DNA from: Escherichia coli
Lineage (GTDB): Bacteria > Pseudomonadota > Gammaproteobacteria > Enterobacterales > Enterobacteriaceae
Strand: one strand, 5' to 3'
Assembly: GCF_044324785.1 (NCBI RefSeq)
Contig: NZ_CP172127.1
Length of the DNA stretch: 64,000 nucleotides
In this document: piece by piece, positions 24,001 through 27,000 of the stretch
How the letters are laid out: every line of letters starts with the position of its first letter
How positions within the stretch are numbered: the stretch's first letter is position 1
Program-made: the position numbers

Positions 24001-27000
24001 TTTGGTGAAAGCCAGTTACTGACGGGCGCTCTGACCTGGGGATTAGGCATCGTTGGGCCAAAACATTCCGGCAAAGTGATGTCATGGAACGGAATGGCGA
24101 TTTACGGTGCCCTCGCTGTTGGTGCGCCGCTTGGCCTGTTGATTCATAGCCATTACGGTTTTGCCGCACTGGCGCTCACCACAATGGCATTACCCTTACT
24201 GGCGTGGGCCTGTAACGGCACAGTGCGCAAAGTACCGGCCCTGACGGGAGAACGTCCATCGCTGTGGAGTGTTGTCGGGCTTATCTGGAAACCAGGGTTA
24301 GGTCTGGCGCTACAAGGCGTTGGTTTTGCGGTTATCGGGACTTTCGTTTCGCTCTACTTTGCCAGCAAAGGATGGGCGATGGCGGGCTTTACTCTTACCG
24401 CGTTTGGCGGCGCATTTGTCGTGATGCGCGTCATGTTTGGCTGGATGCCGGACCGTTTTGGCGGCGTGAAAGTGGCGATTGTCTCTCTGCTTGTAGAAAC
24501 GGTGGGCTTGTTGCTGCTCTGGCAAGCCCCTGGTGCGTGGGTCGCATTAGCGGGCGCGGCGTTAACCGGAGCCGGATGTTCGCTTATCTTTCCTGCGCTG
24601 GGCGTGGAGGTGGTTAAACGCGTCCCCTCACAAGTTCGCGGCACCGCATTGGGCGGTTACGCCGCGTTTCAGGATATCGCCCTCGGCGTCTCCGGGCCGC
24701 TGGCGGGAATGCTGGCGACCACGTTTGGTTACTCTTCGGTATTTCTTGCCGGGGCGATCTCTGCGGTGCTGGGAATTATTGTCACGATACTGTCGTTTCG
24801 TCGGGGTTAACGAACCAGCCAGACCAGCATCAGGATAATCGCGACTAACAGTATCCACAGCGCGGGACGCGTTGCCATATTTTGCAACGTGTCCATCATC
24901 GGTGGAAAAGGATTAAGCAGCGGTTGCATATCACGCGGATCAATCCCTTTAACCCGCCGTTGATAAAGCTGATTAAGAATATCCTCGGCCTGGGCTGAAG
25001 AAAGCGATGATTGCGCAGAAAGACCATATTTTTGCTGGATATATGCCGATAACGCCGCCAGTTCACTGGCATCTAAAGGTTGTTTCAGCGCCATCTGTAG
25101 TGATTCCAGTGTCGGCGTATTTTGCTGGCTTAGCGTCTGACGCGCCTGTAGCCAGGTCACCAGATGGTTAAACAGTTTCGCTGGAATTAACTCGCCATCT
25201 TTCACCCCGGAAAGTTCCAGCATCGATTGCCAGATCTGCTTGCTGGGTTCCCCCGTTGCCGCCGCAAGTTTGGTCACCAGCTGTTTAAGCGCATTGTGCT
25301 CCGCCGGTAATAAAGGACGATCGGTCGCCTCGCGCTGCTGCGGTTGCGGAATAACCATCTTCCCTTCCTGCAACAGGGTGAGAATGGTTTTTAATTGCTC
25401 CGGTGAGAGCTGATTCAGCGGCGTCTGACCAAAGTTATGACGGATATAATCCGTGACCGCCTGACGATTATTCCCCAGACGTAGATACTCCCCTAATTGC
25501 GCTAAAAGCTGGCGGGCAGAATGGCTTTTTTGCGCGGCCAGCAGACGTTGCGCCAGATTGTGCTCAGCGGCAGGGAAGTGACGCGAAAGCAGCGGTGAAT
25601 CTCCCGACAGACCAATATCGTGCCTGATACCCGCCCACAGTTCTGCTCTTTGCTGTTGCGTCAGTGAGGTCACTTTCGTCATTAAGCTTTCCAGCGAAGT
25701 ACGTTGCTGACTGGATAAAGGCTGATTGCCCGCGCCAGACGGCAGGTTATCTCCCTGACCTGGTGGTTGCCCAGGAGGAGGGCCGGAAATAGGTTGTATC
25801 ATTACGTATCCTTATACCTGAAATCTTCGCAAGTATGCCTGGCCGCGAGATTATGGCACACTTGTCCGGTTAACTCTCGTCTCATACAGGTAACACAAAC
25901 GTGAAAATCCTTGTTGATGAAAATATGCCTTATGCCCGCGACTTATTTAGCCGTTTGGGTGAGGTGACCGCGGTTCCCGGGCGTCCAATCCCCGTCGCTC
26001 AACTGGCAGACGCGGATGCGCTGATGGTGCGTTCGGTCACGAAAGTGAATGAATCTTTGCTGGCAGGAAAACCCATTAAATTTGTTGGCACTGCCACCGC
26101 GGGGACCGACCATGTCGATGAAGCGTGGTTAAAGCAGGCGGGAATTGGTTTTTCCGCGGCACCTGGCTGTAATGCGATTGCGGTGGTGGAATATGTTTTC
26201 TCCTCACTGCTGATGCTTGCCGAACGCGATGGATTTTCACTGCACGAGCGTACCGTGGGGATCGTGGGCGTTGGTAACGTTGGTCGCCGTTTACAGGCGC
26301 GACTGGAAGCGTTAGGGATTACAACCTTGCTTTGCGATCCGCCTCGCGCCGACCGTGGGGATGAGGGGGATTTCCGCTCGCTGGATGAATTAGTTCAGCA
26401 TGCGGATATTCTGACTTTCCATACGCCACTCTTTAAAGATGGTCCGTACAAAACGCTGCATCTGGCGGATGAAAAACTGATCCGCAACCTGAAACCGGGA
26501 GCGATCCTGATTAACGCCTGCCGTGGCGCAGTCGTCGATAATACCGCCCTGCTGACCTGCCTGAACGAAGGCCAGAAGTTAAGCGTAGTGCTGGATGTCT
26601 GGGAAGGCGAACCGGAACTTAACGTGGAATTGCTGAAAAAAGTGGATATCGGCACGCCGCATATCGCAGGCTATACCCTGGAAGGTAAAGCACGCGGAAC
26701 TACGCAAGTGTTTGAAGCTTATAGCAAGTTTATTGGGCATGAACAACACGTTGCGCTGGATACGTTGCTGCCCGCGCCAGAGTTTGGCCGCATTACGCTG
26801 CATGGTCCGCTCGATCAACCGACGCTGAAAAGGCTGGTGCATTTGGTGTATGATGTGCGCCGCGATGACGCACCGCTGCGTAAAGTCGCCGGAATACCGG
26901 GTGAGTTCGATAAGCTGCGCAAAAACTATCTTGAGCGCCGTGAATGGTCATCTCTGTATGTAATTTGTGATGACGCCAGCGCGGCATCATTGCTGTGTAA

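Follow-up and report, generated by a model that had tools for sequence, protein, structure and literature searches.

The 64,000-nucleotide stretch of Escherichia coli DNA analysed here (the window; contig NZ_CP172127.1) contains two genes, yfcJ and flk, that converge from opposite strands and share bases of their stop codons. yfcJ (23632–24810, + strand) encodes a 392-aa MFS transporter, as assigned from the ORF list, a match to Pfam MFS_1 (E = 5e-36) and the RefSeq annotation of the homologous region; YfcJ is a candidate copper-importer-like MFS protein (PMC10588857). flk (24807–25802, − strand) encodes the flagella biosynthesis regulator Flk, a 331-aa protein with a hydrophobic C-terminal tail, identified from the ORF list, RefSeq and 667 homologues, with the precomputed Flk family PF27202. 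RefSeq annotates the identical 4-nt overlap in BW25113, isolate AF40 and MG1655 (b2321/b2322), where flk occupies 2437950..2438945 and yfcJ 2438942..2440120. A 1001-bp query (24300–25300) was matched in 5422 of 5426 complete E. coli genomes at a query coverage of at least 80% and an identity of at least 95%.

An overlap of this kind could be an artefact of annotation, with one ORF not being a genuine gene or ending elsewhere. However, both stop positions are set by the sequence itself and, because the end of an ORF is independent of the choice of start codon, the overlap does not stem from how the genes were annotated. Both genes are backed by Pfam and RefSeq, and both proteins have many full-length homologues with the same end residue across genera. 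We rejected an artefact, the probability of which we consider negligible, on the grounds of the Flk homologues, the common end residues and the MFS_1 match; yfcJ and flk are two genuine convergent coding genes on opposite strands.

The junction (24800–24811) reads gtcggggttaac. The yfcJ stop codon is the TAA at 24808–24810 on the + strand, and that of flk is the TAA formed by the reverse complement of 24807–24809 on the − strand. The coding sequences therefore share the tetranucleotide TTAA (24807–24810), of which the central TA (24808–24809) is common to both stop codons. At each outer position, the last base of one stop codon pairs with the wobble base of the final sense codon on the opposite strand, in the other gene. 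The last sense codons in the window, CGT in flk and GGT in yfcJ, are both of the form NNY, as this geometry demands. The preliminary description is right about the names and coordinates of the genes and about the bases that their stop codons share. Six convergent gene pairs are present in this region of the window, and yfcJ/flk is the one that overlaps, the other five having spacers of 32–120 nt.

Among convergent overlaps, those of 4 nt at CTAA, TTAA, CTAG or TTAG form the modal class and produce a jump at length 4 in the distribution (PMC2174442). The yfcJ/flk junction belongs to this stop–stop class without any difference, TTAA being one of its four possible tetramers. Counts of convergent overlaps in E. 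coli stand at 58 and 75 (PMC2174442; PMC4161906). The arrangement is also already known, since it is annotated and appears in a published catalogue of transcripts that overlap.

We compared the junction across 80 species-level Enterobacteriaceae loci. The 4-nt overlap is present in 30 of the 80 species, namely in Escherichia, Salmonella, Citrobacter and a few relatives, as TTAA (15), CTAA (7), TTAG (6) or CTAG (2), and the last sense codons are NNY in all 30. In a further 22 species the stop codons are separated by a spacer of 18–93 nt with REP-like palindromes or hairpins; whether the genes overlap or have a short spacer, the last residue of each protein is the homologous one. In other genera flk converges on another gene, which is fabB in Trabulsiella and belongs to GH1 in Kosakonia. 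Because the convergent partner differs in these two genera, the flk–yfcJ pairing is not conserved, and such differences between genera argue against a dedicated flk–yfcJ regulatory design.

The order of events was examined with a quick neighbour-joining tree, which was built from the Flk and YfcJ proteins themselves and is a gene tree rather than a species tree. In this tree only the Escherichia/Salmonella/Citrobacter group and a few relatives show the overlapping state; Buttiauxella and Cedecea, as outgroups, have spacers of 56–67 nt. Yokenella, which has the overlap, clusters with Pseudocitrobacter, in which the spacers measure 46–86 nt; at least one additional spacer gain or loss is therefore required. 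With an overlapping clade on one side and spacers or other partners elsewhere, this species distribution suggests that the overlap is derived, through loss of a spacer, and was afterwards fixed. An alternative idea is that spacers were instead inserted at the YTAR tetramer (Y, pyrimidine; R, purine) with duplication of the target site. IS5-type and TA-targeting elements do insert with target-site duplication, but we know of no such duplications for REP elements, and spacer loss is favoured by the gene tree. The orthologous junctions of Enterobacter, Lelliottia, Leclercia and others resemble other REP/BIME spacers between convergent genes in containing one or two REP-like palindromes, of which GCCCGGTGGCGCTGCGCTTACCGGGCCTAC is an example, whereas the E. 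coli junction is without any REP. A REP-like match lies upstream of yfcJ (23377–23453), where Rfam gives a sub-threshold hit to the REP-derived naRNA4.

We searched the surroundings of the junction for elements that could define the 3′ ends of the two transcripts. In species whose stop codons lie less than 400 nt apart, canonical intrinsic terminators are essentially lacking within 300 nt of either stop, with the exception of one weak, E. coli-specific element. This terminator-like element for the yfcJ transcript, found by consensus scan, lies inside the flk coding sequence from 48 nt past the yfcJ stop (24858–24884, + strand) and consists of a 7-bp stem (CAGCGCG/CGCGTTG) followed by CCATATTTTG, in which CC precedes the U-rich run. 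It occurs only in E. coli proper (loci L001, L002 and L008) and was not found in E. albertii, the other sampled Escherichia lineages, Citrobacter or Salmonella. In the flk direction, the scanned species with a gap below 400 nt have no intrinsic terminator within 300 nt of the stop, apart from one match inside a repeat array (locus L051).

Two potential structures were assessed against shuffled sequences. An inverted repeat 55–84 nt past the yfcJ stop (24865–24894) forms a strong local hairpin with an 11-bp stem and an 8-nt loop, with z = −4.0 on the + strand and −3.5 on the − strand, and none of 200 shuffles was equally stable. It has no U-tract after it, sits inside translated flk sequence and is not kept outside E. 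coli, the homologous position in Citrobacter and Salmonella folding otherwise. It is possible that this hairpin acts as a 3′ exonuclease barrier on yfcJ read-through RNA. The second structure, an imperfect inverted repeat centred on the junction (24780–24850; fold region 24778–24852), reaches z = −0.8 and −0.3 and was rejected as a bidirectional terminator, its fold energy being no better than that of shuffles. A conserved RNA structure past the yfcJ stop was likewise rejected, as the RNAalifold consensus of 32 sequences amounted to only −4.3 kcal/mol; the species comparison revealed no conserved structure beyond either stop, and an Rfam search returned no known RNA family at the junction. An antisense promoter was also rejected: the single 9-of-12 match (24872–24899, + strand) compares with 1.8 expected and is below chance.

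Base composition points to a role for Rho in one direction. The untranslated RNA made by read-through from flk, antisense to yfcJ (24207–24806, − strand), is C-rich and G-poor, with a C/G ratio of 1.2–1.5 in 80-nt windows starting 1–41 nt past the stop and of 1.3–2.1 (maximum 2.07) in windows spanning 181–600 nt past it. The ratio for yfcJ read-through is about 1, and a Rho-type composition is thus found in the flk direction only. The composition of flk read-through RNA favours Rho loading, and Rho may well terminate transcription there. The Term-seq and Rho tables of Adams et al. (2021) contain no curated 3′ end or Rho region in MG1655 2438000–2439799 under three growth conditions, which may be explained by low expression. 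No defined 3′ end is thus listed less than about 850 nt from the junction.

The same dataset does place a termination event at the other end of yfcJ. Bicyclomycin-sensitive, and hence Rho-dependent, termination was recorded 77 nt into the gene, at MG1655 2440043 (−) with a Rho score of 5.8 (Adams et al. 2021, supplementary file 2), and this is the only Rho region in either yfcJ or flk in that file. The read counts at the site are 236, 15, 266 and 98, which we take to be upstream and downstream counts without and then with bicyclomycin. When coordinates are mapped to MG1655, the site coincides with a hairpin and U-tract inside the 5′ end of yfcJ (23685–23709, + strand), a scan match with the sequence CCGCATCGCTTTTGCGG TTTTTCTCAC. 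Most yfcJ transcription thus appears to end 77 nt into the ORF, and this early element probably restricts the transcription that reaches the junction. The level of yfcJ RNA is low, at 163 relative units compared with tens of thousands for strongly expressed genes (PMC10294691).

These observations bear on whether the junction works as a collision-driven bidirectional terminator of the type described by SEnd-seq, in which a hairpin at the boundary pauses both polymerases and head-on and trailing collisions then release them to give sharp, overlapping 3′ ends. This Rho-independent model was proposed for convergent E. coli pairs without intrinsic-terminator features (bioRxiv 10.1101/2022.10.23.513370), and the yfcJ/flk pair is like the terminators of Wang et al. 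in its convergence, its lack of a canonical intrinsic terminator and its nearby hairpin-forming sequences, which include both the repeat that spans the junction and the strong hairpin at 24865–24894. However, SEnd-seq terminators sit in intergenic DNA and have sharp 3′ ends, whereas yfcJ and flk have no intergenic DNA between them, Term-seq, perhaps owing to low expression, reports no sharp ends at the junction, and the boundary repeat folds no better than chance. The one significant hairpin is offset to one side, in translated and non-conserved flk sequence, rather than at the transcript overlap. The model also suits highly expressed genes best (bioRxiv 10.1101/2022.10.23.513370), and yfcJ and flk are not such genes. 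A collision-driven terminator at this junction is accordingly improbable.

A Pho-box-like site, TGTCACGATACTGTCGTT, is also present close to the junction (24780–24797, + strand); it is the only match in the window, and 10 nt separate its end from the yfcJ stop codon. In K-12 the site (…GTCATT) differs by one substitution in the second half-site and is a PhoB ChIP-seq peak at MG1655 2438961 with a score of 8 and is not bound by H-NS (PMC10294691 Table 1). The peak falls essentially on the yfcJ/flk junction, and PhoB bound 10–27 nt upstream of the yfcJ stop could in principle be a conditional roadblock that limits read-through by one or both polymerases under phosphate starvation. Besides the peak itself, the persistence of the site in the window with a single substitution speaks for this. 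However, the authors class the K-12 peak as transcriptionally inert (PMC10294691), yfcJ RNA is unchanged in a phoB deletion (163 in the wild type and 187 in ΔphoB; PMC10294691 Table 1), and their test of three other intragenic sites showed no roadblocking, such sites being deemed non-functional noise (PMC10294691). The second half-site, moreover, differs between K-12 and the present strain, and the region is variable among genera. We regard a PhoB roadblock as extremely unlikely.

The preliminary description held that the two transcripts must overlap at their 3′ ends with no terminator in between. For full-length mRNAs this follows of necessity, since the genes leave no DNA between them and neither mRNA is complete unless it contains the stop codon of its partner; 3′ ends that fall short of the partner gene are impossible for any mRNA encoding the full protein. 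The claim also agrees with RNA-seq data, in which ExcludonFinder lists flk–yfcJ among 165 convergent excludons of MG1655 (NAR 2025; PMC12288877), the criterion being that the coverage of the two genes overlaps in half or more of 58 samples (PMC12288877). Overlapping transcripts therefore exist. For the further suggestion that the arrangement causes transcriptional interference or antisense pairing, a literature search gave no support specific to flk–yfcJ, and nothing in the present analysis shows a regulatory role for the overlap.

A regulatory role would be expected if the pair were a functional convergent excludon, in which polymerase collision, RNase III cleavage of the 3′ duplex or both make the expression of flk and yfcJ mutually exclusive. 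The pair resembles a convergent excludon through its explicit listing as adjacent opposite-strand genes with overlapping coverage, and the unavoidable overlap of spacerless genes and the retention of the arrangement in 30 species are in keeping with such a function. However, once both genes are expressed, pairs with overlapping coding sequences meet the coverage criterion almost automatically, and the defining mutual exclusion and RNase III processing are only putative for flk–yfcJ, our search of the literature having found no data on mutual exclusion for this pair. Neither gene is named in the 10 supplementary files searched from a p19 dsRNA capture study, a method that recovers few 3′ UTR or weakly expressed duplexes, and neither name occurs in the SMRT-Cappable-seq supplements searched. 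Low expression, the premature termination of yfcJ transcription and the varying partner of flk among genera weigh further against an excludon, as does the lack of a known functional relation between a flagellar regulator and a candidate copper-importer-like protein. We therefore consider a functional excludon doubtful, although it retains a small share of the probability.

We favour the explanation that the arrangement is a neutral or nearly neutral compaction rather than a dedicated device, and judge this to be probable. An ancestor of Escherichia, Salmonella and Citrobacter would have lost a short spacer between flk and yfcJ, after which the two stop codons came to share a central TA in a YTAR tetramer, an overlap that is the tightest packing to leave both proteins unchanged. 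Changes at the outer bases are synonymous in the last codon of one gene and only switch the stop codon of the other between TAA and TAG, and changes in the central TA abolish both stops together; without the shared stop, YfcJ would be 51 residues longer and Flk 26. For these reasons the overlap persists once formed. As a result, the 3′ untranslated part of each mRNA is antisense to the 3′ coding end of its partner, without a dedicated terminator. Read-through from flk is probably terminated by Rho inside yfcJ, because its RNA is C-rich, G-poor and untranslated. Read-through from yfcJ probably stops at the weak E. coli-specific hairpin and U-tract 48–74 nt into flk, or through Rho, and its 3′ end may be trimmed back to the strong hairpin at 24865–24894. 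Collisions between polymerases and duplexes between the RNAs are expected to be infrequent and to matter little, because both genes appear to be transcribed weakly and a large part of yfcJ transcription ends prematurely near the 5′ end.

Some observations count against a plain neutral explanation. The stability of the 24865–24894 hairpin is far above chance, and selection, instead of a mutational ratchet, could be the cause of the retention of the overlap in 30 species without exception. The overlap itself is above chance in one sense, as 30 of the 80 species-level genomes share it unchanged and it is clade-specific, but not in another, as it belongs to the modal class expected of convergent overlaps (PMC2174442). 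A composite of the alternatives is also conceivable, in which loss of a REP/hairpin spacer at the base of Escherichia–Salmonella–Citrobacter created an obligate antisense 3′ overlap that is under selection as a cis coupling of flk and yfcJ, with 3′ ends set by collision and Rho inside the partner coding sequence and with the strong K-12 PhoB site gating read-through in phosphate starvation; we think this combination very unlikely.

Under the favoured explanation of neutral compaction, yfcJ/flk is a textbook-type case of convergent genes packed without a spacer and with neither protein compromised, and of why such packing is stable after it has arisen; it is of little importance in itself. What is newly added is the history of one pair, in which a spacer was apparently lost and the junction then frozen across Escherichia, Salmonella and Citrobacter. 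The comparative series of overlap, REP or hairpin spacer and other partner may be a handy natural experiment for deciding between regulation and mere unavoidable geometry as the basis of excludon calls made from RNA-seq.

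In this Escherichia coli window, the yfcJ ORF (+ strand, 23632-24810, 392 aa) ends in a TAA at 24808-24810, and the flk ORF (- strand, 24807-25802, 331 aa) ends in a TAA read from 24809 to 24807. Bases 24808-24809 are common to both stop codons and the coding sequences overlap by 4 nt, TTAA (24800-24811 reads gtcggggttaac in the window). The gene names and shared-stop coordinates of the preliminary description agree with the window sequence and the ORF ends. The overlap is not an annotation choice because the ORF ends are set by the sequence, and both ORFs are genuine genes, with a Pfam MFS_1 match for YfcJ (E = 5e-36) and 667 Flk homologues. 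RefSeq annotates the identical 4-nt overlap in BW25113, AF40 and MG1655 (flk b2321, 2437950..2438945; yfcJ b2322, 2438942..2440120). A 1-kb junction query matched 5422 of 5426 complete E. coli genomes at coverage of at least 80% and identity of at least 95%, with 98.6% identity to K-12 derivatives and 99.5% to isolate AF40. An imperfect inverted repeat across the junction (24780-24850) was rejected as a bidirectional terminator, its fold being no better than shuffles (z = -0.8 and -0.3).

The arrangement is not unusual: it belongs to a well-described class, is already annotated and the pair is already catalogued. In a statistical study of 58 prokaryotes, the length distribution of convergent overlaps jumps at 4 because CTAA, TTAA, CTAG and TTAG each give a stop on both strands; E. 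coli has 58 convergent overlaps in that study (PMC2174442), and in another 75 of 4131 adjacent E. coli pairs are convergent and overlapping (PMC4161906). Six convergent pairs lie in the genome region matching the window (spacers of 58, 32, 47, -4, 120 and 66 nt), flk-yfcJ being the sole overlap.

What is new in the present work is the comparative anatomy of the flk-yfcJ junction. We aligned ten Flk proteins, fetched 80 species-level Enterobacteriaceae loci (L003-L082) and located both stops in each locus with a script. The 4-nt overlap recurs in 30 of the 80 loci, a spacer of 18-93 nt is present in 22 and one of 340 nt in a single locus; more than 700 nt separate the genes in 12, and yfcJ is missing within 3 kb of flk in the other 15. 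Across the 80 loci, every overlap was 4 nt long and every spacer measured at least 18 nt. The C-terminal ends of YfcJ and Flk fall at a homologous residue in both overlap and short-spacer loci. Spacers in Enterobacter, Lelliottia, Leclercia, Huaxiibacter and Cedecea contain one or two REP-like palindromes (for example, GCCCGGTGGCGCTGCGCTTACCGGGCCTAC), and those of a few genera contain simple hairpins, such as AAAAGCCCGATAGATAATATCGGGCTAAAAAAG in Pseudocitrobacter vendiensis. In Pseudenterobacter timonensis, a 68-nt unit repeated 4.4 times in tandem lies between flk and yfcJ (3978-4274 of locus L051). The unit comprises the last ~30 nt of flk, the flk stop codon and a REP-like palindrome, indicating that the flk 3' end was duplicated along with the REP.

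In a neighbour-joining tree of Flk and YfcJ, the overlap state forms one group comprising Escherichia, Salmonella, Citrobacter, Intestinirhabdus and two further lineages, with Yokenella as an additional case; the outgroups Buttiauxella and Cedecea have spacers of 56-67 nt. The simplest reading of this quick gene tree, which is not a species tree, is that the overlap was derived by spacer loss and has not reversed within that group, the Yokenella/Pseudocitrobacter grouping requiring at least one extra change of junction state. One locus with a typical Enterobacteriaceae flk-yfcJ junction (L058, contig CACSKA010000009.1) is titled Chryseobacterium sp. 18061; it is near-identical to the Citrobacter sp. 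18056 locus L061, and its title probably reflects a labelling error or contamination of the record.

Neutral compaction is the best-supported account of the overlap. The spacer between flk and yfcJ would have been lost and the stops would have come to share TA; no tighter packing is possible without altering a protein. The two outer bases of the tetramer each serve both genes, as the third position of one last sense codon and as part of the partner's stop. A T/C swap at either is always synonymous in the sense codon and does no more than convert the partner stop from TAA to TAG or back. Both stops contain the central TA, and its loss would extend YfcJ by 51 residues (next in-frame stop 24961-24963) and Flk by 26 (24729-24731). 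The overlap would thus be held in place because the sole mutations sparing both stops are synonymous. The same geometry explains why the tetramer varies among the 30 overlapping species (in flk orientation, TTAA 15, CTAA 7, TTAG 6, CTAG 2), and why the last sense codon is NNY for both genes in all 30.

The preliminary description also held that full-length flk and yfcJ mRNAs must overlap, which is right as a matter of logic since there is no intergenic DNA; the refutation it proposed, transcripts ending short of the partner gene, therefore cannot succeed, and a terminator, if there is one, has to sit within the partner gene. A strict scan for a hairpin plus U-tract in the 300 nt past each stop, across all loci with stops less than 400 nt apart, found essentially none in the flk direction and, in the yfcJ direction, one weak candidate confined to E. 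coli proper (24858-24884, CAGCGCGGGACGCGTTG followed by CCATATTTTG). A strong hairpin with an 11-bp stem and no U-tract after it lies inside the flk coding sequence at 24865-24894 (z = -4.0 on the + strand and -3.5 on the - strand; 0 of 200 shuffles as stable). It is weaker in E. albertii and the other sampled Escherichia lineages, Citrobacter and Salmonella have a different fold at the homologous position, and the alignment-wide consensus fold past the yfcJ stop reaches just -4.3 kcal/mol. This E. coli-specific hairpin could possibly act as a barrier to 3' exonucleases. That a boundary hairpin pauses polymerases from both sides, as in the collision-type bidirectional terminator model (bioRxiv 10.1101/2022.10.23.513370), is very unlikely here.

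Rho acts on untranslated, C-rich RNA. Read-through from flk gives an RNA antisense to G-rich yfcJ that is rich in C and poor in G; its C/G is 1.2-1.5 in the 80-nt windows closest to the stop and reaches 2.07 at greater distance, whereas C/G of the yfcJ read-through RNA is near 1. This composition suggests that flk transcripts terminate Rho-dependently; yfcJ transcripts may end through a mix of weak intrinsic and Rho-dependent termination. Published data neither confirm nor contradict these modes: in the Term-seq data of Adams et al., neither curated 3' ends nor Rho regions fall within MG1655 2438000-2439799.

A roadblock formed by PhoB at the junction was also considered. A Pho-box-like site on the + strand (24780-24797, TGTCACGATACTGTCGTT), with one substitution relative to the K-12 version (…GTCATT), ends 10 nt before the yfcJ stop, and a K-12 PhoB ChIP-seq peak (score 8) is centred almost on the junction at MG1655 2438961. 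However, the ChIP authors saw no PhoB-dependent regulation at this site, which they report as transcriptionally inert, and they treat intragenic sites of this kind as noise (PMC10294691), making a roadblock extremely improbable.

The overlap could instead serve regulation, as an excludon in which opposite-strand neighbours with overlapping transcripts are expressed in a mutually exclusive way. The ExcludonFinder study (NAR 2025, PMC12288877) names flk-yfcJ as one of the 165 convergent excludons that it calls in MG1655, the criterion being RNA-seq coverage that overlaps in 50% or more of 58 samples. However, the partner of flk is not constant. In Kosakonia, flk and yfcJ are separated by a GH1 glycosidase gene that converges on flk; in K. 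quasisacchari (L067, 4043-5566) it encodes a 507-aa family 1 glycosyl hydrolase and is separated from flk by 31 nt. In Trabulsiella guamensis yfcJ is absent from the flk locus and the direct convergent neighbour of flk is a beta-ketoacyl synthase gene (fabB homologue; L029, 4129-5346), ~120 nt away. Such variation speaks against flk and yfcJ being functionally coupled in a conserved way. Inserts of ~1.6-1.7 kb between the two genes occur in L067 and in loci L053, L057, L066, L070, L075, L078 and L080.

Expression also bears on this possibility. yfcJ RNA is low (163 relative units, compared with tens of thousands for strongly expressed genes, in the PhoB data set; PMC10294691), and neither gene name occurs in the available parts of the supplements to the p19 dsRNA and SMRT-Cappable-seq studies. 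Adams et al. report a bicyclomycin-sensitive region at MG1655 2440043 (-), 77 nt into yfcJ, with 236, 15, 266 and 98 in four read-count columns, which we read as upstream and downstream counts without and with bicyclomycin. The position corresponds to 23709 in the window, directly after a hairpin and U-run at 23685-23708 (+ strand, 23685-23709, CCGCATCGCTTTTGCGG then TTTTTCTC). This suggests premature termination or attenuation, such that much yfcJ transcription seems to stop well before the junction. Such early termination, the weak expression, the fact that YfcJ and Flk have unrelated functions, and the inconstant partner of flk together make a designed regulatory role unlikely. Upstream, the fabB-yfcJ intergenic region contains a sub-threshold match to Rfam naRNA4, a REP-derived nucleoid-associated RNA (23377-23453, - strand; 34.8 bits against a gathering score of 59.5, E = 0.0014); the match indicates a REP element, which adjoins the terminator-like hairpin of fabB at 23445-23466.
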